A stretch of 64,000 nucleotides of DNA from a virus (IMGVR_UViG_3300032288_005424); one strand, 5' to 3'. Shown: positions 10,847 to 26,445, numbered from the stretch's first letter. Notes: generated from the letters alone by a model not told the origin. A program made the numbers and translations.

Positions 10847-10863
10847 AGAGATAAACCTAGAAG

Positions 10864-11808: not shown

Positions 11809-12156
11809 TTGGAGTATAAGAAGTTATTACTTAAATCCAGAAAAAAGATGTTATTGGAAAGTTTAGTTGCAGAATTCTTCAGGATTCTCGAGCGGTCTGG
11901 TCGGGACTGGCACCGGATCCGTTGGGCAATCCGCGGGCTGGAATCCGAAATCCGGCGTAGTGCTCACGGCCAACCCTGGTCCGAGGAGCTTGAAGAATAC
12001 CTTATCTTCCGGATTGGGGAGGCGCTGACCATTGCCCAAAGGGCGGCTGTTGCAAGGGAGGAGTTTGAATGGGCGCATGAAATTGCGATCAGGCTCCGGG
12101 AACTTGGCCACGATTTAGAAAAAACCTTAATAGACAACAATGCAGAAACAGATTGA
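11809..12156 (+). CDS. hypothetical protein
   Basis: 115-aa ORF with intermediate GC. Confidence 0.4.
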   Translation: MEYKKLLLKSRKKMLLESLVAEFFRILERSGRDWHRIRWAIRGLESEIRRSAHGQPWSEELEEYLIFRIGEALTIAQRAAVAREEFEWAHEIAIRLRELGHDLEKTLIDNNAETD

Positions 12157-12157
12157 C

Positions 12158-12319
12158 ATGATAGACCTCATTCTCGAGCGGGCGCTGGACCGCCATGGTC
12201 TAATAGACTGGACTTGGATAGACCACGAACTCGCAAAGAAGGGAGCAACGGTTGAGAGACGGGTCTTACACAAGCGGGTCAAGGCTCTGCTCGCGACCAG
12301 GGCCAAACGGCGTTGGTAG
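12158..12319 (+). CDS. small basic hypothetical protein
   Basis: 53-aa ORF (MIDLILERALDRHGL...) whose ATG overlaps the upstream stop (TGACATG). Confidence 0.3.
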   Translation: MIDLILERALDRHGLIDWTWIDHELAKKGATVERRVLHKRVKALLATRAKRRW

Positions 12320-12360
12320 AATATAATAACCTATCTCTAAAAAAATAAAAGAAAAAGAAT

Positions 12361-12585
12361 ATGCAAAAACTAACAACCCTACTCGCGGCCCTGCTTCTTG
12401 CGGCTGGCCTTGCCTTTCTTGCCTCGGTAATAATTGCCTTTCCGGTCAAGTGGCTCTGGAACTGGTTGATTCCGGAAATTTTTACCGGCGTCAAACCGAT
12501 CTCGGCTCTACAGGCCTGGGGTCTCGTGTTCCTGCTTAACCTCATGATTCCGAACCGTAATCGGACCGAGAAGAAATCGGATTAA
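12361..12585 (+). CDS. small two-TM membrane protein
   Basis: TATAAT box at 12322-12327; two hydrophobic helices. Confidence 0.5.
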   Translation: MQKLTTLLAALLLAAGLAFLASVIIAFPVKWLWNWLIPEIFTGVKPISALQAWGLVFLLNLMIPNRNRTEKKSD

Positions 12586-12669
12586 CCCTAAAAAATTTAG
12601 GAAAAAAGACCCGGGATTTTTATTTCTCGGGTTTTTTTGTTATATTTGTATCATAAATCCAGTAAAGAT

Positions 12670-12831
12670 ATGTACACGTTAGATTGCAACTATTACCAAA
12701 AGGAATTCCGCACGGTCGCCGAACTCTTAACCGACGTTCTCGAGAGCGGTACCGATCCGAACTACGAAATTCTGCGCAACGGCCAACCGACCGGCGAAAC
12801 CGCATGGGACCTCATCGGCCCCGTTGCCTAG
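12670..12831 (+). CDS. small hypothetical protein
   Basis: Preceded by a hairpin plus T-run (12608-12640) and a TTATATTTG -7 box; start MYTLDCNYYQ. Confidence 0.4.
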   Translation: MYTLDCNYYQKEFRTVAELLTDVLESGTDPNYEILRNGQPTGETAWDLIGPVA

Positions 12832-12846
12832 CAAATTTTTCCTTAG

Positions 12847-12940
12847 CGATCCCAGCCCAAAAAGGTTGGGATTTTTTTTTTAAAAAAAGTGAAAATAAAT
12901 TTTTTTGTTTGAGAAATTTTGGTTATATTTGCTTTATCAA
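12847..12940 (+). promoter_or_regulatory. terminator-promoter cassette A (host sigma-A type)
   Basis: ATCCCAgcccaaaaaggTTGGGAT hairpin plus T-run, then AAAAAGTGAAAATAAATTTTTTTGTTTGAGAAATTTTGGTTATATTTGCTTTATCA (TTTG then TAnnTTTG). Confidence 0.6.
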
Positions 12941-12953
12941 ACTTCAACAAACC

Positions 12954-13427
12954 ATGCTTAATCACACCACATTTCCAGCCGCTCTCCTTGCCGGCAACTC
13001 CCGTCTCACCATCACCAATCCAGCGACCGGTCAATGGATCAAGGTCAAGATGAAGCGTCGCAAGGACCGCGAAACCGGCAAGCCGGGTAATTGCTACTTC
13101 CTGTCGCTTGCGCTCTTGCAGGACGGGGACCTTGGCCACCGCTACGTCGGAGCCTACTTCGCGGATTCGGGCCGATTCAAGCCGGGTCGCGATGCCTCGG
13201 CCAGAGAAGTTCAGATCGCCGAATTCCTGATCCGTGCCGTTCGTAATCCGCAACTGTTGCAGGCTGCAGAGATCGAGCACTGCGGTAAATGTTTTGCCTG
13301 CGGCCGGACCCTAACCGTGCCGGAAAGTATCCGCTCGGGCTGGGGACCTGAATGTTTTACCCGCCAGTTCGGAGACCTCAGCCTCCGACCGCTTGCCGAG
13401 TTCGGATTACTTGACCCAATCGGGTAA
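12954..13427 (+). CDS. hypothetical protein (GC-rich)
   Basis: 157 aa starting MLNHTTFPAALLAG, 14 nt after the -7 box; CxxC pair (HCGKCFACG). Confidence 0.5.
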   Translation: MLNHTTFPAALLAGNSRLTITNPATGQWIKVKMKRRKDRETGKPGNCYFLSLALLQDGDLGHRYVGAYFADSGRFKPGRDASAREVQIAEFLIRAVRNPQLLQAAEIEHCGKCFACGRTLTVPESIRSGWGPECFTRQFGDLSLRPLAEFGLLDPIG

Positions 13428-13708
13428 TCCGGCCCGGCCGGGGCCGGACTCCCTAGTAAAGAGTACAATAATTTCATTAATTAAAACCATAAAATCATGA
13501 AGAAGTTAATTCAAAGATTCCTATTCGGAACCCCAATCCAGGGCGAGACGGTTGACCTAAGCGTTGGCAAGCCCAGAATTCAGAGCACTTGCGAACCTGC
13601 GGAGAAGGCAAGCTTCAATGAGGTATTCCAAAACGTGCACCGCGAATTACAGGCCGCAGCCGCAGAACGACTTGGGGTCAGGGGATAATCCAATCCCTTC
13701 GAGGATTG

Positions 13709-13722
13709 GGTATATTAAACCT
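13709..13722 (+). promoter_or_regulatory. class-2 -10-like box (GGGTATATTAAAC) ending 6 nt before the ATG
   Basis: Same architecture as 10659 and 29146; preceded by hairpin CCAATCCcttcgaGGATTGG. Confidence 0.4.
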
Positions 13723-13980
13723 ATGAATACGCCCAATCAACCCGAAAAAGAAAAGATACTCTATGACCTAACCGGCTTAGCCGCCAGCCTGGTCGCCGGA
13801 GGAATCTCTAGAAATCAGCCCGATATTCTGCTCATAGGTAAGATCTTAACCGTAAGCATCGGAGCCCTGGACTCAGAAGCCGGCAAGGAGAAATTAGAAG
13901 AATTCCTTGTTCAGATTCACAATGCGAGAGAGGAAGAAGAAGAAGTGAGAAAGATGTTAAAAGACCTGGGTATTGGGTAA
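13723..13980 (+). CDS. hypothetical protein
   Basis: 85-aa ORF beginning MNTPNQPEKEK. Confidence 0.45.
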   Translation: MNTPNQPEKEKILYDLTGLAASLVAGGISRNQPDILLIGKILTVSIGALDSEAGKEKLEEFLVQIHNAREEEEEVRKMLKDLGIG

Positions 13981-14230
13981 GATAACAATAATAAAAGATT
14001 ACAACTGGTGGAGGAAGTAACAAGAGTTACCAACTGACTGGAGTAAAGGATTCTACGGGTAAAAAGTCAGAGCCCGCTTGAGAGAATCGTCGGAGCAACA
14101 CCGAACTCCACCGCAAAATGATAAATTGGTTTGGTTGATTGATTCAGCAATGGGAGACTCGCAAGGTCTCCTTTGTTGGTTATTGAGTATATTAGTAATT
14201 ATCATTAACTCCTAAATAAAAAGAACCCTT

Positions 14231-14383
14231 TATGAATCCATTAATTCAAACATTTAAAGTACTATACAACTACGCCAAAGAAGAACCTCGTGATTTCGTA
14301 TTATCAATCGCCTTCATGATATTAATGATATTCATTGTTTGGGCGAGCCTATGGGGTCATGCAATAATTAGCGGCACCGTTTA
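14231..14383 (+). CDS. small membrane protein
   Basis: 50-aa ORF with one TM helix (LSIAFMILMIFIVWASLW); TATATT box at 14187-14192. Confidence 0.3.
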
Positions 14384-14461
14384 AAATTTAGGACATGAAT
14401 AATAAAGACATAGTAATAGATGACGTCTTGATTGGATAGACATTAAATCAATAGATATACC

Positions 14462-14707
14462 ATGGAAAAAATAAGTTGGGAACCGGTAAAGGACAGACAC
14501 TGCCACGGCCGTTGCGAGCTAGGCGAGCTATGGATCCGTTTGGACCGTGAGGGTAAAGTAAGCGGAATATACACGATGTTCGGCGAGACCAAGAAATGGT
14601 GTCCGGAATCCGAGGAAGAAGAAACCCTTGTTGGAGCAAAGGTAATCTGCGAATTACTCTTAGCTGGCGAGATCGCGGCCAGAAAAATAGAGAAAATTAT
14701 TCAATAA
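14462..14707 (+). CDS. small hypothetical protein
   Basis: 81-aa ORF. Confidence 0.4.
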   Translation: MEKISWEPVKDRHCHGRCELGELWIRLDREGKVSGIYTMFGETKKWCPESEEEETLVGAKVICELLLAGEIAARKIEKIIQ

Positions 14708-14746
14708 AAATTGTCAGGTGTCAAGTTTCTGTATTATATTTACAAT

Positions 14747-14887
14747 ATGGAAAATAACAAAGACCTAAAACCAGAACCCAAACAGGAAAAGCCAGAACCT
14801 TGCAAGCACGAACGCTATTACATTGCGGTCCGCCACGTGAGCGGACTTGTTGTAAGAAGGTGTTCAATTTGCGGAGTGAGAGTTTAA
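14747..14887 (+). CDS. small zinc-ribbon-like protein
   Basis: 46-aa ORF (CKHERYY...CSICG) preceded by GTGTCAAGTTTCTGTATTATATTTACAAT promoter; shorter than the ORF-track cutoff. Confidence 0.35.
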   Translation: MENNKDLKPEPKQEKPEPCKHERYYIAVRHVSGLVVRRCSICGVRV

Positions 14888-14908
14888 TTAAGACATTATC
14901 CAAAGAGA

Positions 14909-15020
14909 GCCCGGCCAATGGTCGGGCTTTTTGTTAATAACTATGTTAATAACTTTTTTTAAAAAAAGTGAAAATAAATTTTTTGGTTTGAGAAATTTGT
15001 TTTATATTTGCTCTATCAAT
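14909..15020 (+). promoter_or_regulatory. terminator-promoter cassette B
   Basis: AGCCCGgccaatggtCGGGCT plus T-run, then AAAAAAAGTGAAAATAAATTTTTTGGTTTGAGAAATTTGTTTTATATTTGCTCTATCA. Confidence 0.6.
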
Positions 15021-15049
15021 TATCAATTAACCCTTAAAAAACCAAACTT

Positions 15050-15427
15050 ATGCAAATCCAATTAACCCACCAAGAATCAGAACAGATGTTCCACAACGCT
15101 CTTTGCAACGGCTTAGGCTACATGAGCGGCTACGGTCTAGAATTCGAGTACAGCGACGAGCAGTACAGCGCAGCAAAGACAAAACTTCAGAGCCCATGCT
15201 TCGAGGACGTGCTCATGCAAATCCTACGCGACGGCGGTAGTCTAACTTTCGTAGACGTTGAATGCGACGGCGAATACACTCGCTCGGTCTCGTTAGCTGA
15301 TGTCCACGACAGAGTTCAAAAAACTCCAGCTCGCTTCTTGTTAGACATGATCAATGAGAACGACGATGCTGAGACAGCGGATGTAATTCTACAGACGGTG
15401 TTCTTCGAAGAGATCATCTTCGGATAA
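15050..15427 (+). CDS. hypothetical acidic protein
   Basis: 125-aa ORF followed by a long GC-rich hairpin containing ACTCCCTAGT. Confidence 0.5.
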   Translation: MQIQLTHQESEQMFHNALCNGLGYMSGYGLEFEYSDEQYSAAKTKLQSPCFEDVLMQILRDGGSLTFVDVECDGEYTRSVSLADVHDRVQKTPARFLLDMINENDDAETADVILQTVFFEEIIFG

Positions 15428-15562
15428 TCCACGGCCAGCCGGCCGGGCCAGTAGGCCACTCCCTAGTACGGGTGGTCCGCTGGCCCGGACCTTTAGAGCC
15501 AAAACGGGGTCGGACTCCCTAGTAAAGAATTTAAAATCAATAACCAATTAAATCAAAAGATC

Positions 15563-15769
15563 ATGCAACAAGAAATAATTAAAACCTTAACTGAATTAAA
15601 AAGAAACAAGAAGTACATCGCGCTCTCGCTCCACCCAGCAATCGGTAACTCAACGATTTCCAAGGAGGATAACAGACTCTTCATCAACGAAGGTCGAGGC
15701 GGTAAGTGGGAAGGAGTATCGGAAAGTTTCTACGACGAGATGGTCGCTAAGTTCGATTCACGTAGCTAG
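15563..15769 (+). CDS. small hypothetical protein
   Basis: 68-aa ORF. Confidence 0.4.
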   Translation: MQQEIIKTLTELKRNKKYIALSLHPAIGNSTISKEDNRLFINEGRGGKWEGVSESFYDEMVAKFDSRS

Positions 15770-15780
15770 AAAATATTTTT

Positions 15781-15835
15781 CACAAAAGTGAAAATAAATT
15801 TTTTTGTTTAAGAAAAAAGTGTTATATTTACAATC
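15781..15835 (+). promoter_or_regulatory. promoter C (sigma-A type) for the sigma-factor gene
   Basis: CACAAAAGTGAAAATAAATTTTTTTGTTTAAGAAAAAAGTGTTATATTTACAATC. Confidence 0.55.
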
Positions 15836-15867
15836 TCAATTATTAATCAATCAAAAACCCAACAATT

Positions 15868-16587
15868 ATGTCAAAAAGATTTGAAACAGCGGATGGCCTA
15901 CCGCAATACTTCAAGAGTATTGAATCAGTTGCCAAACCACTAAGCAAGACGGAGGAGCTTGCGCTAGCGGATAGAATCCAAGCGGGAGACGAGCGCGCGC
16001 TCAATGCTCTGGTAACCGCGAATCTAAAGTTCGTCGTAACCCTTGCGAATAAGTTTATCGGTATGGGATTACCGATCGATGACTTGATTCAAGAAGGAAA
16101 CGCTGGTCTAATTGAAGCGGCTCGTAAGTTTACATCAGATAAGGATGTTAAGTTTATTACCTATGCCCAGTTCTGGATTCGCAAGCGCTTGAATCTTGCT
16201 CTTTGCGATTACGGCAGAATCGTTAGGCTTCCGGTAAATCAAGAGTACGACATTTACAAGCGCAAGATGAAGGGAGAAGAAATCAATCTCTCAACCGTAC
16301 AGATCGATAAGCCTGTTGGCGAGGACGGTGACAATACAATCGGCGATATAATGCTTCGTACAGACTTTGCCGATCCGTTCGAGAAGGAAGAAACCAATCG
16401 TGTCTTGACCAGATTACTTTCAAAGTTAAGACCGACCGAAAGGGAGATTGTTGAATTGTTTTACGGTCTCGTGGGAGATGGCCTTTCTACGAAAGAAATC
16501 GCAGAGCAAGTTGGAAAGACCCCAGCTGAAGTTAACCGCGCGTTGAAGGTCGCACGTGCACAAATGAGAAAGGAGGTAAGCAAATGA
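15868..16587 (+). CDS. sigma-70 family RNA polymerase sigma factor (regions 2, 3, 4)
   Basis: Region 2 (NLKFVVTLANKF...DDLIQEGNAGLIEAARKFTSDKDVKFITYAQFWIRKRL) and region 4 (TEREIVELFYGL...LSTKEIAEQVGKTPAEVNRALKVARAQMRK). Confidence 0.7.
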   Translation: MSKRFETADGLPQYFKSIESVAKPLSKTEELALADRIQAGDERALNALVTANLKFVVTLANKFIGMGLPIDDLIQEGNAGLIEAARKFTSDKDVKFITYAQFWIRKRLNLALCDYGRIVRLPVNQEYDIYKRKMKGEEINLSTVQIDKPVGEDGDNTIGDIMLRTDFADPFEKEETNRVLTRLLSKLRPTEREIVELFYGLVGDGLSTKEIAEQVGKTPAEVNRALKVARAQMRKEVSK

Positions 16588-16799
16588 ATACGATAGAACA
16601 CGCAAACACGATGGCTGCCATGGCAGTCGATATCCTCTACTCTGAGGGTGATCCATTCAAGGAGCCAATAGATAAATCAAGACTCCAGTGGGAGATTCGT
16701 CAGGCCACCCTGAAGAAACTTGTGACTGAAGATTCAGACCTATTGGACGAAGACGAATTCCAAGCCTGCGTTAATAACTCTAAAATTCAAAAGGCATGA
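16584..16799 (+). CDS. small hypothetical protein
   Basis: 71-aa ORF whose start overlaps the sigma-gene stop (ATGA). Confidence 0.4.
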   Translation: MNTIEHANTMAAMAVDILYSEGDPFKEPIDKSRLQWEIRQATLKKLVTEDSDLLDEDEFQACVNNSKIQKA

Positions 16800-17092
16800 G
16801 CGTAGTAAGAATAATAAACGATACGGTCCACCTGTTCGAGAATTCGGGTAACCTGATAAGAACCATAACAAGCGGCGCGGTCTCAGCACAGATCTCTCCT
16901 GACGAGAGTCGTATTGTGCTAGTCACGGAGTCAGGGACCGCCCAGCTTTGGGACGTAAGAGGTAATTACCTACAGGATATTACGAGCGGAGCGGTCGATG
17001 CCCGATTCTCAGGAGACCTAATCATCGTTACCAAAGAGTACGGGCCGGATGAAGTTAGGGATGGGCGAGGAAATCTGCTCAGAACAATTTAA
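16796..17092 (+). CDS. repeat-containing small protein
   Basis: Internal repeats GNLIRTITSGAVSAQ / GNYLQDITSGAVDAR / GNLLRTI. Confidence 0.4.
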   Translation: MSVVRIINDTVHLFENSGNLIRTITSGAVSAQISPDESRIVLVTESGTAQLWDVRGNYLQDITSGAVDARFSGDLIIVTKEYGPDEVRDGRGNLLRTI

Positions 17093-17094
17093 CC

Positions 17095-17145
17095 GGTCTA
17101 AAAATAAATTTTTCCGTTTAAGAAAAAAGTATTATATTTACAATC
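17095..17145 (+). promoter_or_regulatory. promoter D (sigma-A type)
   Basis: AAAAATAAATTTTTCCGTTTAAGAAAAAAGTATTATATTTACAATC. Confidence 0.55.
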
Positions 17146-17167
17146 TCAACCCTAAAAATTTAAAATC

Positions 17168-17425
17168 ATGCGCTACAAATTAGGAAACAAATGGTCAGAC
17201 AACTTTGATTACGATGGAATGCTCGAGACCGGAGCACAGGTTACGGAAGAAACCCCGCTTGCAGACCTGCAGAAATTGTTTGACTCTTTCGAAGATGTCA
17301 ATTACCACACGGAATCCGAGCCGCTATGGGAAGCCATACAGGGCAAGAAGGCCGGGCAAGAAGAATACTTCAAGAAGAATCTAGCAGAGTTCAAGGCTCG
17401 CTGCTCAGCCTGCCTAGCAGAGTAA
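17168..17425 (+). CDS. small hypothetical protein
   Basis: 85-aa ORF. Confidence 0.45.
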   Translation: MRYKLGNKWSDNFDYDGMLETGAQVTEETPLADLQKLFDSFEDVNYHTESEPLWEAIQGKKAGQEEYFKKNLAEFKARCSACLAE

Positions 17426-17450
17426 AAGAATCTATCAAGAAAAAACAAAA

Positions 17451-17482
17451 GGGACCGAGGGTTAATCTTTCGGTCCCTTTTT
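17451..17482 (+). terminator. rho-independent terminator
   Basis: GGGACCGAgggttaatctTTCGGTCCC plus T-run, followed by a double TATAAT box (17485-17495). Confidence 0.6.
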
Positions 17483-17529
17483 AGTATAATATAATAGAGC
17501 CTAATTGGGTAAAAATAAATAATCAAACC

Positions 17530-17793
17530 ATGTCAGACCTAAATAAGTATTCCAAAATCCTGCTAGACCTCGTCTATCTTAGACAGACGGACTACGACGC
17601 TTTCATGAATCGCCTGTACGAAGCCTTGACCGGCGAGTTCAAGGATGTAATCAATGATTCAACCCCGGTCGAGGAGAAGTCTCAAGCAATATGGACCATG
17701 ATCAAGCATTTTGAAAAGAACGAAGAATTCGAGAAGTGCGCCGACCTGAAGAAATTAGCGGATCAATTACCTAAATCAAAAGATCATGTGTAA
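17530..17793 (+). CDS. small hypothetical protein (EEFEKCADL motif)
   Basis: 87-aa ORF sharing a motif with 2466..2663. Confidence 0.45.
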   Translation: MSDLNKYSKILLDLVYLRQTDYDAFMNRLYEALTGEFKDVINDSTPVEEKSQAIWTMIKHFEKNEEFEKCADLKKLADQLPKSKDHV

Positions 17794-17864
17794 GGTAATC
17801 CTAATAGTCGCAGCTTTCGTGTTGATTGAAGAATGGATCGTTCGCAAGAAAGCCTAAAACTTTT

Positions 17865-17925
17865 TTTGAAAAAAGTTTAAAATAAATTTTTTGGTTTCGC
17901 GGATTTTTGTTATATTTGCTCTATC
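17865..17925 (+). promoter_or_regulatory. promoter E (sigma-A type)
   Basis: TTTTTTTGAAAAAAGTTTAAAATAAATTTTTTGGTTTCGCGGATTTTTGTTATATTTGCTCTATCA. Confidence 0.55.
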
Positions 17926-17949
17926 ATTAACCAACTAAAATTTTAAATC

Positions 17950-18336
17950 ATGCAGAAATTAATTCTAGTCCGCTTCGGAAATCAACCGAACCCAATCGTC
18001 TCAATGGCTTTAAAACCCCATCTCGTTGGCAACGCGTTCGCCGGTCCAATCCCGGGCGCGATCATGTCGGTCTTTAACACCGAGTCCACGAAAGAGGAGA
18101 TCGCTGAAGACCTCAAAGAAACAGGTGCCTACTTCATGCTAATGCGAGCTGATGAAGCCACAATCAATCTTCCGGAAGAGTTGATGGAAGTAATTGCGCA
18201 AATCGTCGGTGAGGAACCTGGACGCGCGACAGACTCCAGTGAATTGACTATTGATGATATATTGGACCTCATCAACAAGAACGGTATTGAGTCCCTAACG
18301 CCCGAACAGAGACGTATCCTGGATAATCGCCATTAG
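17950..18336 (+). CDS. hypothetical acidic protein
   Basis: 128-aa ORF. Confidence 0.45.
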   Translation: MQKLILVRFGNQPNPIVSMALKPHLVGNAFAGPIPGAIMSVFNTESTKEEIAEDLKETGAYFMLMRADEATINLPEELMEVIAQIVGEEPGRATDSSELTIDDILDLINKNGIESLTPEQRRILDNRH

Positions 18337-18377
18337 GCGATTATCCCACTGTTAAATATAATCTAAACCCCATTTAT

Positions 18378-18593
18378 ATGAAGGAGATTGTAAGACTATA
18401 CTTATACACGGACGGCAAGGAAACTTGTATTAAAGACCCGCAAGAGATGATAAGACTTCTTTCAGACCCGCAGGAAGAAATAGACCTGGATTACCATGAT
18501 GCGAGAGGTTTCGCAAAGGTTGCAACCAGCAAAGACCTGATTGGAGAGACCGTCCAGGTTGGAGAAGTAGAGATTACTATTATTAACCATTAA
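18378..18593 (+). CDS. small protein, tandem paralog 1
   Basis: IRLLSDPQEEIDL...DLIGETVQVGEVEITII. Confidence 0.45.
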   Translation: MKEIVRLYLYTDGKETCIKDPQEMIRLLSDPQEEIDLDYHDARGFAKVATSKDLIGETVQVGEVEITIINH

Positions 18594-18605
18594 TCGAATT
18601 AGACC

Positions 18606-18830
18606 ATGCAAACACCAATAAACATTATAGATTGTATCGAGACCGTGGACAATTGGGGAGGTCAAGAAAAGTATTCAACTCAAGAAACGTTCAGACTCTT
18701 AAGTAATCCGGACGAATGGACAGACGACCAAATCTTTCGCGGCCCTGCTGGCGAGAGGTATTTTATAGACGACCTCATCGGAAAGAAAGTCACAGTCGGT
18801 CCAATGACATTTACCGTTCAAGAAGACTAA
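18606..18830 (+). CDS. small protein, tandem paralog 2
   Basis: FRLLSNPDEWTDD...DLIGKKVTVGPMTFTV, similar to 18378..18593. Confidence 0.45.
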   Translation: MQTPINIIDCIETVDNWGGQEKYSTQETFRLLSNPDEWTDDQIFRGPAGERYFIDDLIGKKVTVGPMTFTVQED

Positions 18831-18867
18831 AGATATTTCGAGAAATCGAGATTGGCGACAGGCTAAG

Positions 18868-18955
18868 GCTGCTCAGAAACGGGCAGCTTTTTTTTTGAAA
18901 AAAGTTTAAAATAAATTTTTTAGTGTCAAGTTTTTGTTGTATATTTGCTCTATCA
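18868..18955 (+). promoter_or_regulatory. terminator-promoter cassette F
   Basis: GCTGCtcagaaacggGCAGC plus T9, then GAAAAAAGTTTAAAATAAATTTTTTAGTGTCAAGTTTTTGTTGTATATTTGCTCTATCA. Confidence 0.6.
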
Positions 18956-18980
18956 TTAACCACCTAAATTATTAATCAAC

Positions 18981-19499
18981 ATGGCAAAGAAAATCCAAAC
19001 CACCGAACGCGCTAGCGGAACCTCATTCCACGGAACAGAATTCAGAGCGAGCGCAAACGAAATTATTGCAATCCTTGGCGAACCAACATACAATGACAAC
19101 AACGGCAGAGATAAGGTAAATCTTGAATGGGTATGCGAGACGGACGAAGGAGACGTCTTTACGATCTACGATTGGAAAGAGTATCGTCAAATCGGAATGG
19201 ACGAAAAGATTGATTGGCATATCGGAGGACACAGCGGCCGAGTAACTAAGAAGGCTGTGATGGAGCTTGAGAAGTTTGGAGTGAAGCCTTTGGAAGATAT
19301 GCTATCATTTAACGAATTTTTAAAAGAATCCAAAAAGCACAAACTAAGTATAGGCGATTTGATTGAATTTGATAACGCCGAAGCTAGAATTTATAATGTT
19401 TATACGACTAGAGGCGGTAAAGCCATGTACACAGTCGGCAGCTCAAAACATGGAACCATTGAGATTGAAGCCGAAGACATAGAAAAACAGATAAGGTAG
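18981..19499 (+). CDS. hypothetical protein
   Basis: 172-aa ORF. Confidence 0.5.
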   Translation: MAKKIQTTERASGTSFHGTEFRASANEIIAILGEPTYNDNNGRDKVNLEWVCETDEGDVFTIYDWKEYRQIGMDEKIDWHIGGHSGRVTKKAVMELEKFGVKPLEDMLSFNEFLKESKKHKLSIGDLIEFDNAEARIYNVYTTRGGKAMYTVGSSKHGTIEIEAEDIEKQIR

Positions 19500-19517
19500 A
19501 TTGATTGGATTACAGAA

Positions 19518-19605
19518 GCTGCTCAGAAATGGGCAGCTTTTTTTTTGAAAAAAGTTTAAAATAAATTTTTTTATTTGAGAAATTTGTTGTATATTTACAC
19601 TGTCA
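19518..19605 (+). promoter_or_regulatory. terminator-promoter cassette G (no ORF directly downstream)
   Basis: GCTGCtcagaaatggGCAGC plus T9, then GAAAAAAGTTTAAAATAAATTTTTTTATTTGAGAAATTTGTTGTATATTTACACTGTCA; about 100 nt follow without an ORF before the next cassette. Confidence 0.5.
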
Positions 19606-19708
19606 ATCAAACACTGACGGGACGGTTCGGAACAAGGAAGCGGGAGGTATACTCCGACCTGCACCAGACCTAGCGAGTTGTTAACAACCGAATGTTAATA
19701 ACTTTTTT

Positions 19709-19765
19709 TAAAAAAAGTGAAAATAAATTTTTTGGTTTGAGAAATTTGTTTTATATTTACAATCT
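19709..19765 (+). promoter_or_regulatory. promoter H (sigma-A type)
   Basis: AAAAAAAGTGAAAATAAATTTTTTGGTTTGAGAAATTTGTTTTATATTTACAATC. Confidence 0.55.
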
Positions 19766-19777
19766 AAATTAATCAAT

Positions 19778-20035
19778 ATGCCAACATCATTTCAACCAAT
19801 CGAAGCCCAAACATTACGGGCACAACTACAGACAGGAATTGTAAAATTCTTTTTTGTAAAAAAGGACGGCTCACTTCGTGAAGTCCAAGGAACCACCAAC
19901 TTACGCCACGTGCCGGCCGACAAACATCCTCAAGGCGTACGTCAAACCCCACCAAGCGTTATCACCTTCTGGGATCTCCTAGCGGGCGATTGGCGCAGTG
20001 CGAAAGTAGAAACTCAATTCTTTATTAACCCCTAA
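19778..20035 (+). CDS. small hypothetical protein
   Basis: 85-aa ORF. Confidence 0.45.
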   Translation: MPTSFQPIEAQTLRAQLQTGIVKFFFVKKDGSLREVQGTTNLRHVPADKHPQGVRQTPPSVITFWDLLAGDWRSAKVETQFFINP

Positions 20036-20047
20036 ACCCCACACATC

Positions 20048-20233
20048 ATGGTAACACAAGAAGCAATAGATGAAGCAATCAAAATATTCGGCGAGGACGT
20101 CGTTTATCAAGCAATGGAAGTCGTAGCAATGTCGGATCCCGATGGAGCCTACGCAATGTTCGAGGACATGGGCCAATTCGAAATGGCTGAAGCTGTAGAG
20201 TTTCTTTATTTCGACGGCTCTGCTGACGACTAA
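20048..20233 (+). CDS. small acidic protein
   Basis: 61-aa ORF. Confidence 0.4.
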   Translation: MVTQEAIDEAIKIFGEDVVYQAMEVVAMSDPDGAYAMFEDMGQFEMAEAVEFLYFDGSADD

Positions 20234-20283
20234 AATAGATAAAACTGTAGTACATTAGTCTTAACAATCAAATCAAAAGTAAT

Positions 20284-21414
20284 ATGCAAGAACGTATCGG
20301 TAAAAAAGAATTAGTAGTAAGAGACTTCTTTGAAGCTCAACACGGTGGTCGCGTGCCGCAACTAACCGTTCAACAATTGTACACCCAATTCATGACGCAG
20401 TCGACGGACGCCTCGGGCATCTCGTACGGTCTCTTCAATGGGGTAATCAAGAAGCTGCGCTTCGAAACGGGAGACTCCCTAGTCCCAGGCCCAGGCCAAA
20501 GCACGATAGCTAGAGCCACGGCTGGAGCACAGGCTGACTCCGTAGTAGAAATCAGCGATGAACCCGAGATCTTCGAGATTGGCTCAATGGAGTTTCCTAA
20601 CTTCCGCAAGTTCAAGACCGGCTCGGTGTTCGATCAATTAATGTCGGATCATGACGAGGCCGGCGGTATTTTCTCGGGCACGGCTAATATTGTAATCGGC
20701 GAGTCAGGTGTAGGTAAGTCAACCGTAACCTTGGACATGCTTGCCAAGATCAAGCAGCAGGACCCAACCGCCAAGATCTTGTACATCTCAAGCGAAATGA
20801 CTCGTAACGATCTATTCTTCTATTACAGAAAGATGCCGATCATCGAGACCATTCCTACTCTCTTGGTAATGGATTACCTAATGGGTCGTTTCGATAAGAC
20901 CTTAGAGAAGGCGATCAACGGCGACTATGACGTTATCCTAATTGACTCTCACCAAGACATTATTGTCAAGCTGAAAGACGTGCTTGGCTGGAAGTCTACC
21001 AAGGCCGAGACATGGTTAACCAACCTGATTATCGAAGCCGCTGACAAGAAAGGTAAAGCAATCTTCGCGATCCAACACATGACTAAGGGCGGTGAGTATG
21101 TCGGTTCAACCTACCTCAAGCACGCCACGACCTCAATGATGGAGATCAAGTTCGACGACGCGGGTCGCAGGTTCGTAGAGTTCTCGAAGAACCGCCGAGG
21201 CGGTAGCCTAGTCGGCAAGCGCTTGTACTACTCCCTAGTCCAAGGTGAGGTACGTTGGGACGAGGCCGCATGGAGACAGGAGACCGTGGTTAGCGAGTTG
21301 GCCGAGCAAGAGTCAGAACGCCGCCAACACTTGGAGGGCCAGTTCAACTCTCTGTTCCTAAGCGTTAAGAGACCCCAAACTGATGCAGAGAACGCTGAAA
21401 CTGCAGCAGAATAG
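20284..21414 (+). CDS. RecA-superfamily ATPase, RadA/Sms-like
   Basis: Walker A VIGESGVGKSTVTL; KNRRGG resembles the RadA KNRFG motif; hydrophobic strand plus D (ILIDSHQD) as Walker B; two GC-rich patches with ACTCCCTAGT. Confidence 0.5.
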   Translation: MQERIGKKELVVRDFFEAQHGGRVPQLTVQQLYTQFMTQSTDASGISYGLFNGVIKKLRFETGDSLVPGPGQSTIARATAGAQADSVVEISDEPEIFEIGSMEFPNFRKFKTGSVFDQLMSDHDEAGGIFSGTANIVIGESGVGKSTVTLDMLAKIKQQDPTAKILYISSEMTRNDLFFYYRKMPIIETIPTLLVMDYLMGRFDKTLEKAINGDYDVILIDSHQDIIVKLKDVLGWKSTKAETWLTNLIIEAADKKGKAIFAIQHMTKGGEYVGSTYLKHATTSMMEIKFDDAGRRFVEFSKNRRGGSLVGKRLYYSLVQGEVRWDEAAWRQETVVSELAEQESERRQHLEGQFNSLFLSVKRPQTDAENAETAAE

Positions 21415-21470
21415 TCGGAAACTTCAGCACATAATTTAGTATATTAACCCAATAAAATAAATCAATAGAC

Positions 21471-22589
21471 ATGATAAGCCAATCAGAATTCAATCAGATC
21501 AAATCAGACCTAAGCGGCAACGACCCCTTGGTAAAGCGAGTGAAGTTGTCAGACATCCAGTTGGACGACAACTCAATCAAACATAACCACATCGAGATCG
21601 AGGGATCACGAGTTCCGGTGTCGGATAAGTTCTTCAATCGTCTGGGCCAGATGGTAAACATCAACACCGGCCTAATCACGAAGATGAATAAGAACTCGGA
21701 CAAGGAGATCGAGACCAAGCTCTTACAGGCGGTTAAGTCCTATTCAGAAACCCGTGATGGTAATAAAGAGTTTCTCTTAATCGGCGACTCTACGAGCCAT
21801 CAGGTAACCAACATCGTGAAGGGAGACAAGTATAACAGATTATCTAATGATACGCTGTTCGCTACCGCAGAGACCATCCTAAACGAGATCCCGGACATGC
21901 ACGTTGAGTCAATCGACCGTGGCGGTCCAGGCGGATTATCCATTAACATGATCCATGGCAGCCAGATAGGTTACGAGAAGATCGGTAAGGACGAGGTATT
22001 CCGTTTCGGTATCTCTCTTGTAAACGGCCAGACAGTAAGCCGAGTTGACGACTTCTTCTATCGCTTGGCCTGTGCCAACGGAGCGGTAGCTCGCAACATG
22101 GACACCGCGTTCCAATTCGGTCAGGGTCAGGACGCCTTCCGCAAGTTGCTCGAGCAGATGCAAGGTTGGGCAAAGAACGGCTTCGTACCTAAGACCTTCC
22201 AAGACAGGTTGGAAAGAGCCATGACCACCAAGGCAAGCTACTCAGAATTGGAGAGAGCCTTGTACTCAGTAACCGGTGCAATCCAAGAGAACGACCCTAA
22301 CTTCAAGGCCCACTTGATCAAGAACGCAGAGTCTCAATTCTTTCCAGAGTTCGATGCAACCACGAAGCGTATCTTCCGTAAGGGTTACAATCCGCTACAG
22401 TTGACAGACGCTCAAAAGAAGTTCATCAAGACAGATGCTACAATCTGGGACGTTGTTAACGAGTTGACATGGATCGGTTCTCACGATACTGTCTTCAACT
22501 TAAAGAACCATAAAGGTTTCAAGGTAGAGGGTGGTAATCTATTCGCTAAGAGCTGGGATCTAGAACACGCAGGTCTAGCTACAATCTAA
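21471..22589 (+). CDS. hypothetical protein
   Basis: 372-aa ORF; TATATT box at 21440-21445. Confidence 0.5.
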   Translation: MISQSEFNQIKSDLSGNDPLVKRVKLSDIQLDDNSIKHNHIEIEGSRVPVSDKFFNRLGQMVNINTGLITKMNKNSDKEIETKLLQAVKSYSETRDGNKEFLLIGDSTSHQVTNIVKGDKYNRLSNDTLFATAETILNEIPDMHVESIDRGGPGGLSINMIHGSQIGYEKIGKDEVFRFGISLVNGQTVSRVDDFFYRLACANGAVARNMDTAFQFGQGQDAFRKLLEQMQGWAKNGFVPKTFQDRLERAMTTKASYSELERALYSVTGAIQENDPNFKAHLIKNAESQFFPEFDATTKRIFRKGYNPLQLTDAQKKFIKTDATIWDVVNELTWIGSHDTVFNLKNHKGFKVEGGNLFAKSWDLEHAGLATI

Positions 22590-22618
22590 GCCTTAAACAA
22601 ACTATCTATAACCGGAAA

Positions 22619-22648
22619 GGGGTCCTCACAAGGGACCCCTTTTTTTTG
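22619..22648 (+). terminator. rho-independent terminator
   Basis: GGGGTCCtcacaaGGGACCCC plus T9. Confidence 0.65.
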
Positions 22649-22761
22649 TGTTTAGTAAAACCTTAAACTCAATCCAAGTATAAGACTACTGTAGCTGATT
22701 AAACAGCTTTTCATTTTTACGACTGATGGATGGGCTTCCTAATAAGGAGCCCATTCGTCGT

Positions 22762-22905
22762 TTAGCCCTGGCCGACATTGCGCTTCACGTAGTTCTTGGA
22801 GCTCTTGTTGTTAGAGGTCTTAGACTTCGCGTGCACGCCGGGCCTGCTCACTTTAGTCTTTAGTCTAAAGGTCGAGGCAGCCGAGGTTTTAGTTGATTTA
22901 GCCAT
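22762..22905 (-). CDS. small Lys-rich basic protein (47 aa)
   Basis: MAKSTKTSAASTFRLKTKVSRPGVHAKSKTSNNKSSKNYVKRNVGQG read from the minus strand inside the GC-rich island; possibly a DNA-binding protein. Confidence 0.3.
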   Translation of the reverse strand: MAKSTKTSAASTFRLKTKVSRPGVHAKSKTSNNKSSKNYVKRNVGQG

Positions 22906-23035
22906 TGAGAGATTATGATTTATTGTTATTTAACCCAAAAACCGTGCCTCCCCCGGTGAGCTCTGGAGTTGAGCCCCCAGGCCATGGGGATTCGGGTCAC
23001 AAGTACCTTCATCGCCCCCAAATAAATAAACCAGT

Positions 23036-23485
23036 ATGACAAAGACACTAGCGCAAAAGGATTTAGACTTCATCAGATTCTGCATAGCAGAATTAGGGAT
23101 AACCACCGCTCCCAACATCAGGGTCGGGGATGACCACTCAAAGGCCCAAGACCGGAGAGCAATGGGTTACTACAGTCCCAAGGATAATTACATTTGGGTG
23201 CTAAGGGGCCAGCGAATCCCGGCTGACTGGTACCGAACCCTAGCCCATGAGCTTGTGCATTGGCGCCAACGCGAAGAGGGTAAGCCATTGGACGGGGCGG
23301 ACGGTAGCGAGATCGAGAATGAAGCTAACTCCAAGGCAGCGGTGCTCCTACGCGAATGGGGCCGCCGTTACGAACACATTTACGTGCTGGACGAGGACGA
23401 GCCCCAGATTCCAGTAGGCACTGACCTGCCTTTCGATGGCGGTGGTAGCCTGGCCGGCGAGCCAATGGTTCCATTCTCTCTCTAA
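23036..23485 (+). CDS. HExxH motif protein (putative Zn peptidase, ImmA/IrrE-like?)
   Basis: LAHELVHW motif; ~58% GC; converges on and overlaps the recombinase gene by 4 nt. Confidence 0.4.
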   Translation: MTKTLAQKDLDFIRFCIAELGITTAPNIRVGDDHSKAQDRRAMGYYSPKDNYIWVLRGQRIPADWYRTLAHELVHWRQREEGKPLDGADGSEIENEANSKAAVLLREWGRRYEHIYVLDEDEPQIPVGTDLPFDGGGSLAGEPMVPFSL

Positions 23486-24105
23486 TCCCCAATCAAGCGG
23501 CGGGACTCCAGGATGAGATCCGCTAGATCCGACTTTAACTCTTCCCGCATCTCTTCAGTTGTTAGGTGCTTGCTAACTACATGCAGCTCGACACCGTGCC
23601 AGGTCAGGAATCTCTCTATGATCTCTTGGCCAGCAAAGCGCGCGATCCTGTCAGGGGTCTCGACGACAATCATTGAGACCTGCTTGCGCAGTACCCCGTC
23701 CATGATCTTGTCCAGGCCGGACCTGCCAGCTAGGGTACCCGCGCGCCCAACATCTTCAATGACCCGGTCGACCCGGACCCCGGCCGCCGCACAGTACTTC
23801 AGGACCCGCTCGGTCTGGGCCGCGAGTCTGGCCTTGGCCCCTTTACCCAACGTGTGGTTTCCCTCGATCGGAGCGGATCGCGTGTAAACCCATACCTCTC
23901 GGGACTGGGGCAGCCTACTCCCTAGTAACTTAAGTAGGTCCTGCTTGTCGTAGTAGGTCCGGCCATTGACCTGATTCTTCCAGTTCTGCAGCCTGCCGTC
24001 GGCGACATAGCGGTCCAGGGTCTTGAGCGAGACCCCCAAGAACTGGGCGGCCTCCTTCTTGTACACGAGCTCCCCGGTCGGGAAGGTTCTAGTTTCTTGT
24101 TCCAT
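23482..24105 (-). CDS. IS607-family-like serine recombinase (N-terminal MerR-like HTH plus resolvase catalytic domain)
   Basis: N-terminal HTH (AAQFLGVSLKTLDRYVADGRL) followed by resolvase motifs VWVYTRSAP...DRVIEDVGRAGTLAGRSGLDKI...VSMIVVETPDRIARF...GVELHVV; HTH-first order as in IS607 TnpA; ~65% GC; start set at MEQETRT (track gives 24270). Confidence 0.55.
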   Translation of the reverse strand: MEQETRTFPTGELVYKKEAAQFLGVSLKTLDRYVADGRLQNWKNQVNGRTYYDKQDLLKLLGSRLPQSREVWVYTRSAPIEGNHTLGKGAKARLAAQTERVLKYCAAAGVRVDRVIEDVGRAGTLAGRSGLDKIMDGVLRKQVSMIVVETPDRIARFAGQEIIERFLTWHGVELHVVSKHLTTEEMREELKSDLADLILESRRLIGD

Positions 24106-24400
24106 GAGATTATTTATCAGGCCGGGTCCGTGGACTCTCGAGACATTCCCGGGCCCGGTGTCCCGCGGTGTCCGTATATGTCCCGAGTCGTGGGGCCCTC
24201 GCGACCCAGGGCAGCAGGTCCCAGGGCCCGGGGCCGGGCTCGCCGTACTCCGTAGTCCCCAGGTCCGCACAGTAGGTACCCCTTGGGCGTGGCTGGCCGG
24301 TTTACTCCCTAGTCCCGGGTAGGACCGCAGAGGGCCGTGGCAGCCCCCGGACCGGTGGTCGGCTGGGGCCCGGCTATCGGGCCCGGCTTGAGCGAGATTG

Positions 24401-24415
24401 GGTATACTAGCCTAT
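24401..24415 (+). promoter_or_regulatory. class-2 box GGTATACTAG 7 nt before a 29-aa membrane peptide ORF
   Basis: GGTATACTAGCCTAT then ATG (24416) MKRAGIRFDWAWPIVLVVVLASIIIFFIA. Confidence 0.35.
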
Positions 24416-24632
24416 ATGAAAAGAGCAGGGATAAGATTTGATTGGGCATGGCCTATAGTGCTGGTGGTAGTGTTGGCTTCTATAATAATCTTTTTTATAG
24501 CATAGGTAGACTGGGTAGGTTTACTAGACTAGGTAGGTTTAGTAGCTAGAGTAATCTCTTTACTTTTGGGTGTAGGGCGCGCCTCGGTGTTTTTGAGCGA
24601 GAAAAGGTCCACGGCCCGGCGAGCTCGGGTCT

Positions 24633-24647
24633 GGGTATAATAGACTC
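24633..24647 (+). promoter_or_regulatory. class-2 box GGGTATAATAG just upstream of the tRNA-like element
   Basis: TATAAT at 24635-24640; a TSS ~7 nt downstream would precede the element at 24651. Confidence 0.4.
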
Positions 24648-24650
24648 TAT

Positions 24651-24772
24651 AGTCAGGTGGCGGAACGGTAGACGCAACAAGTAAGCTAATGGAAAGTGTA
24701 CAATTCCATGAGGCCATTAATTCCGAGATGTAAGAGAAGTACATCGTGCCCGTTCGAATCGGGTCCTGACCA
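24651..24772 (+). ncRNA. tRNA-like element with a ~35-50 nt insertion in the anticodon region (pseudo-tRNA or unusual RNA)
   Basis: 5' AGTCAGG-TG-GCG-GAACGGTAGA-CGC (acceptor, U8, D-arm with GG) and 3' GCCCG-TTCGAAT-CGGGT-CCTGACC-A (T-arm plus acceptor pairing 6/7); the middle is 72 nt instead of 22-39. Confidence 0.3.
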
Positions 24773-24791
24773 CTAATACAAATAGATCAAC

Positions 24792-24977
24792 ATGAAAGAA
24801 CAAAAAGTACTCGTGACCGGCGATCAGGGCTCGCATGAGGTGCAGGCCAAGGTCGATGCCCTACTCGTGGAGGGTTGGCAGGTGGTGTCGGTCACCGCAC
24901 AGCACGTTTCCACAGGTTCAAGCCAGTTCTTTAGGGGCGGTTACTTCATCGTCTTTGAACGGGCGGCCGCCGAATAA
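24792..24977 (+). CDS. small hypothetical protein
   Basis: 61-aa ORF, GC-rich. Confidence 0.4.
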   Translation: MKEQKVLVTGDQGSHEVQAKVDALLVEGWQVVSVTAQHVSTGSSQFFRGGYFIVFERAAAE

Positions 24978-24985
24978 ATAACTCT

Positions 24986-25477
24986 ATGAAGTATATCAAA
25001 CTATTCGAGGAACTTGCCTCTGACCTGCCTACTCTAAGGGACGTGATCGACAATAACCCCGACGATTTCGAAGATTTTAGGTCCGCTGCGGTAGAGACCG
25101 CCTCGGCGCTTGGCCTCAAGCTCTCCGGCGAGGACAGCGAACTACAGGACATGGGGCTCATTGATGACGAGGCCCTGTTCGACCGGCTCGAGTTTGATCG
25201 TGTTAAGCTCGTCTTTAACATTACCGAACTTACCCATGCTGATGCTCCAAGGCTCAGGGCCCTGGTGCAAAAGTTTCCTGGCCTCTTCACGCTTGATTAC
25301 GATGAGATTAGGCCCGCCCGCAAAGCTGTTCCAAACAAGACTATAGACCCTGAGGTTGACCTCGAGCCCGGCGAGCCGGTGGACGTCATCGTGTGGAAGG
25401 ACCAGGCTGGCAATACCGCGGTCCAGTGGGAGAGCTACTACAATAACATGTGGTTCATGCTGGACTCAGCACTTTAA
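24986..25477 (+). CDS. CTS-like N-terminus protein, tandem paralog 1
   Basis: MKYIKLFEELASD; ~52% GC; similar throughout to 25499..26017. Confidence 0.55.
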   Translation: MKYIKLFEELASDLPTLRDVIDNNPDDFEDFRSAAVETASALGLKLSGEDSELQDMGLIDDEALFDRLEFDRVKLVFNITELTHADAPRLRALVQKFPGLFTLDYDEIRPARKAVPNKTIDPEVDLEPGEPVDVIVWKDQAGNTAVQWESYYNNMWFMLDSAL

Positions 25478-25498
25478 AAAAAAGAATAATAAACCCAA

Positions 25499-26017
25499 AT
25501 GAAATACCTTAAGATATTCGAAGAATTCAATAATTCAGAACTTGCAACTCTACAGGACGTGCTCAATCCGGACCATTATAACGGGGATGACGGTCGCCTT
25601 GAGATGTACTCAGAGGCTGCGCTTGAGACCTGTAAGATGCTTGGCGTTGCACTACCTCCGGAGTTCGCAGAGATCAATGATCTTGGTCTCATTGACCAGC
25701 ATGACCTCATGGACAGCTTACCGCTGGACTCTGTGGTTGAGGTCTTTAACATACTGGCTCTCACCCACCAGAACGAGCCGAGAGTTCGTGAATTCTGCCG
25801 CCGCTTTCCTGGTATACTAGCATACGATCCGGACACCGACGAGTATCGTCGACCTGAGAGTTCACGACAGCTTGAAGAGATCTTTATTGACTCGCCGGAA
25901 TACTGGGACGAGGTTAGGGTGGTGCTCTTTGAGGACAAGAACGGGCTGAGAGCGGTTGAATGGGAGGACCAAGACTATCTAGGCTACTTCATGCTTAGAC
26001 GGGACCTTGAAAAATAA
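25499..26017 (+). CDS. CTS-like N-terminus protein, tandem paralog 2
   Basis: MKYLKIFEEFNNSE; shares LGLID...ALTH...FPG with 24986..25477. Confidence 0.55.
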   Translation: MKYLKIFEEFNNSELATLQDVLNPDHYNGDDGRLEMYSEAALETCKMLGVALPPEFAEINDLGLIDQHDLMDSLPLDSVVEVFNILALTHQNEPRVREFCRRFPGILAYDPDTDEYRRPESSRQLEEIFIDSPEYWDEVRVVLFEDKNGLRAVEWEDQDYLGYFMLRRDLEK

Positions 26018-26043
26018 ATAATCTTGTAAAAAAAGAAACTCAC

Positions 26044-26334: not shown

Positions 26335-26372
26335 TTACACGTATAATTAAAAACACTTTCATTTAATACTTG

Positions 26373-26402
26373 GGACCCGTACTTCACGGGTCTTTTTTTT
26401 TT
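26373..26402 (+). terminator. rho-independent terminator
   Basis: GGGACCCGTacttcACGGGTC plus T11. Confidence 0.65.
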
Positions 26403-26445
26403 GCCCGAACGGCTGGACGATAAATAACAATAAACTGGAATTCCA

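Follow-up and report, generated by a model that had tools for sequence, protein, structure and literature searches.

A co-oriented 10-nucleotide motif and a neighbouring IS607-TnpA-like gene in the early/replication module of a large freshwater phage

Motif copies and genes at the locus

The window analysed here, a 64,000-nucleotide stretch of viral DNA (IMGVR_UViG_3300032288_005424), belongs to a large phage with Bacteroidota-type promoters, T4-type topoisomerase II subunits and a sigma-70-family factor, and carries repeated copies of a 10-mer, ACTCCCTAGT, around the genes of a RadA/DnaB-like P-loop ATPase and an IS607-TnpA-like protein. Seven exact copies are present in the window, all on the plus strand (starting at 13448, 15458, 15514, 20474, 21230, 23917 and 24304), where dinucleotide-preserving shuffles predict 0.08 and none of 100 shuffles attained seven. 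It is the most over-represented 10-mer of the window, and its reverse complement does not occur. Only two one-mismatch variants were found, both reading ACTCCGTAGT (20537 and 24247); this G-form differs from the C-form, ACTCCCTAGT, at position 6. The restriction to one variant suggests all-or-none recognition, in which only the one change at position 6 is tolerated. An over-represented word had been proposed in an earlier reading of the same DNA made without database searches (the sequence-only reading), and this word, with its two variants, is real, while the coordinates then given were wrong by 1-10 nucleotides (nt) and are replaced by those listed above.

The motif is confined to 13.4-24.3 kb, inside a compositionally distinct segment (9.5-28 kb), and the sequence next to the copies on their upstream side has a GC content of 0.52-0.82 vs 0.43-0.57 locally. 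Avoidance of CTAG was considered as an explanation and rejected, since this tetranucleotide is not depleted in the window (167 observed vs 185 expected).

Three intergenic copies lie close to the ends of genes. The copy at 13448..13457 (+) is preceded by a stop codon 21 nt to its 5' side (13427), abuts a GC hairpin (CCGGCCC-GGCCG-GGGCCGG) and is followed, 40 nt to its 3' side, by an ATG (13497). The copies at 15458 and 15514, 56 nt apart, belong to a GC-rich intergenic element visible in the window sequence (15428..15528, +), which opens at a stop codon (TAATCC...), closes with ...ACTCCCTAGTAAAGA 40 nt before the ATG at 15563, and is similar to the element at 13428-13462 (repeat family D7). 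The identical contexts downstream of genes that had been reported earlier were recovered as a 17-mer, GGACTCCCTAGTAAAGA, present at 13446-13462 and 15512-15528; each occurrence follows a stop codon and GC-rich sequence, and the next ATG lies 40 nt further on.

The RadA/DnaB-like ATPase gene (20284..21414, +), assigned by domain and profile matches, contains three copies. Two of them, the C-form at 20474 and the G-form at 20537, are 63 nt apart (20474..20546, +) and are read in frame within the linker of the protein (GDSLVP...ADSVVE), and the third (21230..21239, +) encodes part of a YYSLV sequence whose codons are invariant in 12 diverged genomes. The sequence-only reading had placed two copies in this gene and described it as AT-rich, but the open reading frame (ORF) is 51% GC, with 0.62 GC at third codon positions (GC3). 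Comparison with relatives also pointed to a decayed motif position in the sigma-factor gene (16004..16013, +), where the window reads ATGCTCTGGT.

The IS607-TnpA-like gene occupies 23482..24105 on the minus strand, with its true start at ATG 24105, and encodes 207 amino acids. One motif copy lies inside it in antisense (23917..23926, +; codons CTA GGG AGT = L-G-S), and its nucleotides are kept in relatives. Upstream of the start is a non-coding GC-rich (61-75%) region (24106..24400, +) with an array of two copies, the G-form at 24247 and the C-form at 24304, in a 57-nt period. Of the two copies by which the sequence-only reading saw the recombinase gene flanked, that at 23917 is thus inside the gene and that at 24304 is 199 nt upstream of its start. 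The interval between the start and the array (24107-24200, +) is itself GC-rich, highly conserved between the window, L001 and L002 (related loci are numbered with L), and contains repeated GGGACA/GGACAC words that may be extra operator sites or the promoter region of the TnpA-like gene. On its other side, the TnpA-like gene converges with a metallopeptidase-like gene (23036-23485, +) in a 4-nt overlap (23482-23485) with no terminator between them, so that rightward transcription would cross the TnpA-like gene in antisense.

The IS607-TnpA-like protein

The product of the TnpA-like gene carries the Pfam domains HTH_17 and Resolvase, i.e. an N-terminal BldC-like domain followed by a serine-recombinase fold. 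Its best PHROG match is a 'transposase' family, and its score for NCBIfam transpos_IS607 is 93 bits, below the cut-off of 110. An AlphaFold model (pLDDT 86, pTM 0.80) has IS607-type catalytic domains as its best structural matches (3LHF, 3ILX, 3LHK, 6DGC and 6DGB), and the N-terminal domain of the model superposes on chains of the BldC-DNA complex (6AMA, TM 0.73-0.77 over 55 residues).

The catalytic loop departs from that of active enzymes. In an alignment with two annotated IS607 transposases, the nucleophile loop YARVSS is replaced by YTRSAP, YCRAAG, YCRAST or YCRSAV in the phage proteins, and the column of the nucleophile Ser is Ala in the window protein and most relatives; the TnpA-like proteins of a distant clade, which are ~30% identical, have YCRVAG. 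No conserved Ser or Thr is present in the loop among 68 homologues, nor in the distant clade. The loop also contains an 8-residue insertion, and the C-terminus is 10-35 residues shorter than in canonical proteins, while the remaining catalytic residues, including the Arg after the first strand and the D-R...R motif, are retained (Y74, R76, D152, R153 and R156, invariant in two alignments). Present as a single copy, the gene holds the same syntenic position in every relative, no TnpB-like domain was found in the neighbouring ORFs scanned, and no transposon ends were identifiable around the gene. Because of the lost Ser, the truncated tail, the single-copy synteny and the lack of a TnpB-like neighbour, the protein is treated here as domesticated, and it is probably a non-catalytic DNA binder. 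Nothing relevant emerged when the literature was searched for phage IS607 TnpA in domesticated or inactive form.

TnpA proteins of the IS607 family bind and nucleate on 9-bp directly repeated motifs beside their own gene, as in IS1535, IS607 and ISC1926 (PMC6188088). The phage locus is alike in that an N-terminal excisionase/MerR-type helix-turn-helix precedes the serine-recombinase fold and short asymmetric direct repeats lie just upstream of the gene. It differs in the replaced Ser, the 8-residue loop insertion and the shorter C-terminal tail of the protein, in the lack of a tnpB among the ORFs scanned and in a single-copy, syntenic gene that is not mobile; in addition, the phage sites are phased by 56-58 bp, not 10-11 bp, and occur also in other genes, at distances of up to 10-16 kb. 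Domains of the BldC/Xis type read asymmetric sites of ~9-10 bp cooperatively, as head-to-tail direct repeats. The phage N-terminal domain resembles these small MerR-like proteins closely enough to superpose on DNA-bound BldC, but it is fused to an apparently dead recombinase fold, and its predicted site and long phasing are unrelated to known BldC sites.

Conservation, placement and spacing in related phages

The related loci, all retrieved via the RadA-like gene, the TnpA-like gene or the motif itself, represent a clade of large freshwater phages whose IMG/VR relatives include contigs of ~270 kb; a few similar contigs were binned with metagenome-assembled genomes of Bacteroidota. Megablast with a 12-kb region and tblastn with the RadA-like protein against GenBank phages yielded no close relative, the only match being a distant 484-kb megaphage in which a distant RadA-like gene is present and both the TnpA-like gene and the motif are absent; L126 is likewise without the motif. 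A full-text search for the 10-mer returned only papers with the Widom 601 nucleosome sequence, a chance occurrence.

The motif ranks first among oriented 10-mers in all related loci as well (8-12 copies in 10-16 kb), and 226 distinct copies are found on the major strand vs 2 on the other. The consensus extends to K-ACTCC[C/G]TAGT-M, beyond which there is no conservation, and a hairpin extension was rejected, as positions -1 and +1 show no covariation. Every related contig that reaches the region has both the motif and the TnpA-like gene, down to 30% protein identity, and in a fixed relative orientation: the motif is antisense to the TnpA-like gene and sense to the RadA-like gene. One copy stands within the TnpA-like gene and the densest copies directly upstream of its start, where the close clade has 2-5 copies at 140-400 nt and the distant clade 2-3. 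In the distant clade the in-gene copy is at a different place (codons T-T-E-S, in the former catalytic loop) and the motif is exclusively of the G-form. Such a clade-wide switch between the G-form and the C-form at all sites implies one single reader.

The GC content around 186 distinct copies in the relatives is 0.53 upstream and 0.47 downstream, with a background of 0.46. Thus the GC-rich patches that the sequence-only reading associated with the word are evident in the window, but in the relatives they are modest and limited to the upstream flank.

Copies within coding sequence always stand in one frame (xAC TCC CTA GTx), giving [D/N/Y]-S-L-V, and the word might have been simply the codon series for a shared D/E-S-L-V peptide. 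This explanation was rejected. At the YYSLV site of the RadA-like gene, TAC TCC CTA GTx is the same in 12 diverged genomes, while the adjacent K, R, L, Y, G and E codons show synonymous variation; in L014 and the more distant clade, this position has neither the word nor the peptide (YYKLE, YFSLK). Synonymous positions are therefore frozen within the word, and the peptide is absent where the word is absent, indicating that the motif is a nucleic-acid element selected at the nucleotide level rather than a peptide. The site in the sigma-factor gene is exact in L003, L009 and L012, has one mismatch in L002 and is decayed in the window. These states, together with the frozen RadA-like codons, suggest that sites arise by point mutation where the protein tolerates them and are frozen afterwards. 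In the RadA-like linker, L012 and L108 each retain a single motif copy; what they lack is a 63-nt unit made up of the second copy and the downstream stretch. Presence/absence polymorphism, which the sequence-only reading proposed to look for among RadA-like alleles, thus exists for this unit.

According to a crude gene call, 110 of 212 distinct copies are intergenic, in genomes that are mostly coding, and the copies are concentrated in the 10-16 kb early/replication module. About 30% of the intergenic copies lie no more than 9 nt from the upstream stop codon, and nine supply that stop via their own TAG. Some 12 distinct copies are located 5-20 nt past canonical hairpin and T-run terminators; some directly precede a complete early-promoter cassette, and others sit 1-60 nt before a start codon, including several just 1-6 nt ahead of conserved start codons. 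The motif is co-directional with most genes of the module, and its orientation is retained inside genes of the opposite strand (the TnpA-like gene in all clades and ORF 3607-3879 of L065); one copy in L065 points against the neighbouring genes. More hairpins and a higher GC content are found in the upstream flank than in the downstream one.

Neighbouring copies at most 100 nt apart are sharply phased, with 36 of 45 distances equal to 56-58 nt; no distance is shorter than 51 nt, and none falls between 69 and 168 nt. This period occurs in three settings: in the arrays upstream of the TnpA-like gene, in intergenic doubles (15458/15514, for example) and, in the L013 clade, in a pair that the TnpA-like gene itself contains. 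The upstream array has two copies in the window, four in L008 and five in L012 (2-5 in relatives, with a period of 57-58 nt), and between relatives its first unit is kept and later spacers are variable. The spacers are 46-48 nt long, have a mean GC content of 63% and are not mutual copies. No matches of the 45 distinct spacers were found elsewhere in the loci, and comparison of flanks within genomes gave merely four pairs above the chance score. Structured spacers were rejected, since their folding is near that of shuffles (mean z -0.45), and an Rfam search of the region and of the array gave nothing above noise. A CRISPR-like array was rejected as well, given a conserved block of 12-16 nt (vs repeats of at least 23 nt), no cas-like match and spacers that match nothing in the loci.

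Mobile G+C clusters of yeast mitochondrial DNA had been suggested as a counterpart, and the resemblance is superficial. As in yeast, the phage has GC-rich units of ~50 nt in an AT-richer genome, some of them tandem and one (the 63-nt unit) in frame, the number of units is polymorphic and the repeated word contains TAG. The yeast clusters, however, are similar palindromic copies, whereas in the phage only the 10-12 nt word is conserved, the spacers are unrelated and not unusually structured, and many copies have no GC-rich unit. A mobile GC cluster of the yeast type or a MITE-like element is poorly supported, since the copies are not similar along their length, although they do show presence/absence polymorphism at orthologous positions.

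Several other features of the region were recorded. The compositional island at 9500-28000 has a GC3 of 0.55-0.74, vs 0.31-0.45 elsewhere in the window, and the promoter cassettes between its genes remain AT-rich. Eight to ten such cassettes, each with a terminator hairpin and T-run followed by a TTG...TATATTTG early promoter, are found at 12616-19779 and are PeSL-like; the gene content between them differs from that of L002. The motif shares with the PeSL cassettes of T4-type phages a repeated intergenic position at junctions of early-region modules, but it is GC-rich, lacks a promoter consensus and occurs also inside coding sequence. A second family of promoter-like words, TTTAGTATA(A/T)TAA, lies upstream of genes at 17464, 21419, 36328 and 58676 and may represent a later promoter class; GGGTATATTAA at 13697 is related to it. 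Directly downstream of the RadA-like gene, both clades encode a conserved protein of 372-391 amino acids (window 21471-22589, +; L065 8105-9280, -), which contains FYRLACANG. It has no sequence match in Pfam or PDB and a weak one in PHROG, to a family of unknown function, and searches of these three databases identified neither this 372-residue neighbour nor other small ORFs.

Beyond the array, a tRNA-like sequence (~24650-24775, +) combines an acceptor stem GTCAGG/CCTGAC-CA with a T-arm CCCG-TTCGAAT-CGGG, its D and T arms being separated by ~70 inserted nt; it was called by neither ARAGORN nor Rfam, and ARAGORN placed no tRNA in the vicinity of the array. Ahead of it are a -7 box of the Bacteroidota type (TACTTTTG at 24561) and an TAGGGCGCGCC box shared with L008 and L012. 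A stretch of 70-73% GC that looks non-coding (11280-11800) contains tandem repeats, i.e. a 23-nt unit CCTGGGGGCCACTACCGGAGTCA present twice (11510-11555) and CAGACCTGTCAG, also twice. Within it, ACTACCGGRGTCA, located on the motif strand where the motif domain begins on the left and found only in the closest relatives (L019, L021 and L029), resembles the reverse complement of the G-form with one extra C.

Candidate readers and possible roles of the motif

On the strength of the comparisons above, K-ACTCC[C/G]TAGT-M appears to be a sequence-specific polar DNA recognition element of this phage clade that is strongly selected. Operation at the DNA level is favoured by the copies that follow strong terminators, by the orientation kept in opposite-strand genes and by the fixed phasing, while co-directionality with most genes, closeness to stop codons and the hairpins and GC content on the upstream side favour a role in RNA or transcription. 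As to the reader, the TnpA-like protein is the most probable candidate, judging from its co-occurrence with the motif, the nucleation of IS607 TnpA on 9-bp repeats and the reading of direct repeats by BldC/Xis domains. The explanation preferred here, with a confidence that stops a little short of even, is that the motif copies are oriented binding sites of the neighbouring domesticated, non-catalytic TnpA-like protein. We infer both the binding and its effect from the anatomy of the sites, the co-occurrence and what is known of the family. Recognition sites for the adjacent recombinase, one half of the earlier proposal, are plausible given the retained DNA-binding domain, the co-occurrence and the orientation fixed down to 30% identity; the other half, crossover sites, is unlikely, given the absent nucleophile Ser and the truncated tail.

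The protein keeps an excisionase/BldC-type N-terminal domain and the dimer-forming recombinase fold but has lost the nucleophile Ser. According to this model, it would nucleate on the paired or arrayed sites (56-58 bp phasing) that directly precede its gene, in a manner resembling that of IS607-family TnpA at its left-end direct repeats. It might also occupy single sites, about one per kb, across the early/replication module. The outcome would be a module that is regulated or organised; the protein might, for instance, control its own gene, block in a polar manner, insulate early transcription units from one another or bridge sites.

Several points weigh against the TnpA-like protein as the reader. 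Given how the related loci were ascertained, a host factor or a different conserved product of the module could be the reader. Between the clades, identity is higher for the RadA-like protein (54%) than for the TnpA-like protein (~30%), which would suit a nearly invariant site. A strand bias of 226:2 is unneeded for a simple transcription-factor site, the GC-rich upstream flanks are left unexplained, and the phasing of 57 bp contrasts with 10-11 bp for the IS1535 motifs. Finally, most genes of the module are on the motif strand, so that a transcription-linked role may apply.

A polar DNA signal with a different reader is considered unlikely. The candidates would be the N-terminal domain of the RadA/DnaB-like ATPase, binding iteron-like origin sites in its own gene as lambda O does, a site-specific nickase comparable to the one behind the one-strand nicks of T5 or phiKMV, a barrier to forks or translocases, or a host factor, with the motif resembling a Chi sequence. 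Such readers would agree with a strand bias that is global and independent of local gene direction, with the clustering of copies in the replication module, including 2-3 in the linker-coding part of the ATPase gene, and with the stronger conservation of the ATPase. Yet no nickase, HUH enzyme or Tus-like gene was recognised in the ORFs scanned, the densest copies adjoin the TnpA-like gene and not the ATPase gene, and paired copies in 596 Gb of bacterial genomes number 37 vs ~70 expected by a rough chance estimate, the exceptions being phage-like contigs binned with Bacteroidota. There is also a small chance that the motif is a phage-specific promoter or transcription-start element, served either by a phage polymerase or by that of the host together with the phage sigma factor (15868-16587), and marking one temporal class of genes. 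Many copies are suitably placed for this, after a terminator or stop codon and 15-60 nt ahead of a start codon; the motif is the most over-represented oriented word and co-directional with most genes, its conservation within upstream genes is reminiscent of internal promoters, and the clade-wide co-evolution of sites would fit a changed specificity of polymerase or sigma factor. The arrays and the copies merely 1-6 nt before conserved start codons fit a promoter poorly. Moreover, the sigma factor has both regions 2 and 4, yet the motif is a single block of 10-12 bp, unaccompanied by a second element at constant spacing; several copies directly precede a complete host-type promoter cassette, one copy in L065 is directed against adjacent genes, and a promoter offers no rationale for 56-58 nt arrays of up to five copies or for the 57-nt coding pair.

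A function in RNA has a similarly small chance: a sequence-specific endoribonuclease or a translational repressor would cleave or bind the motif, early transcripts would be processed or shut off in this way, and the upstream hairpins would remain as protective 3' ends. RegB sites of T4 and RNase III sites of T7 are functional precedents, and the sense orientation for nearly all genes, the intergenic copies close to upstream stop codons and the hairpin- and GC-richer upstream flank would all agree with it. Many copies, however, are situated just past strong intrinsic terminators, hence mostly outside the upstream transcript, the orientation is maintained in genes of the other strand, no RNase candidate was seen among the ORFs scanned, and neither Rfam nor the folding of the array spacers gives any sign of structured RNA. 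Lowest of all is the probability assigned to real recombination sites, at which modules between direct repeats would be exchanged or deleted, either by another recombinase or by the TnpA-like protein with the help of an unconventional nucleophile. Here the analogy is the integron: like attC sites, the phage sites have a single orientation, frequently follow a stop codon directly and adjoin a recombinase-family gene that points the other way, and the module content at them varies between relatives. The window and L002 cease to be homologous 4 nt after 13457 and 13 nt after 15523, with different gene content beyond, and the two have one and two units, respectively, at 13.4 kb; across 15 genome pairs, 15 homology end points are within 20 nt of the motif vs 3.8 expected, and unit number differs between relatives, also for the in-frame 63-nt unit. 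This excess and the varying unit numbers fit exchange at the motif, but they also fit a conserved word in fast-evolving intergenic DNA and slippage between short direct repeats. The excess is in part trivial, as homology often stops 0-4 nt past the motif and a conserved word in variable DNA alone ends alignments in this way; for this reason it is not counted here in favour of recombination. Integrons, in addition, rely on an active tyrosine recombinase and folded single-stranded attC hairpins, whereas the phage protein is of another family and lacks its nucleophile, the spacers have no conserved structure and the sites occur also in essential genes, which recombination between direct repeats would delete. 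Neither the spacers nor the flanks are copies transferred from another place in their genome, and active crossover is rated low because the nucleophile is gone, with no conserved Ser or Thr to replace it in the loop and a truncated tail. The homing-endonuclease target considered in the sequence-only reading found no support either, as no HNH, LAGLIDADG or GIY-YIG match and no endonuclease gene were detected in the ORFs scanned and the sites are intact, uninterrupted and conserved.

Coming back to the domesticated TnpA-like protein as the reader, a more far-reaching idea, which we regard as a long shot, is that it forms cleavage-free synaptic filaments on head-to-tail sites. These would constitute an as yet undescribed polar DNA-organising or module-exchange system of jumbo phages, insulating, pairing or promoting the exchange of early/replication modules that the motif delimits, a counterpart of an integron or a centromere derived from a transposon end.

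If the preferred explanation is true, this would be a clear case of a virus domesticating an IS607-type serine transposase into a non-catalytic, sequence-specific DNA binder, with a former transposon-end motif spread as ~10 strictly co-oriented sites across a module of essential genes. The 10-bp site, the 207-residue protein and the natural C-form and G-form variants would then provide a system for studying DNA reading by IS607-type proteins and the polar arrays of jumbo-phage early regions. The 10-mer may also serve as a practical marker of this uncultured phage clade, which probably infects Bacteroidota.

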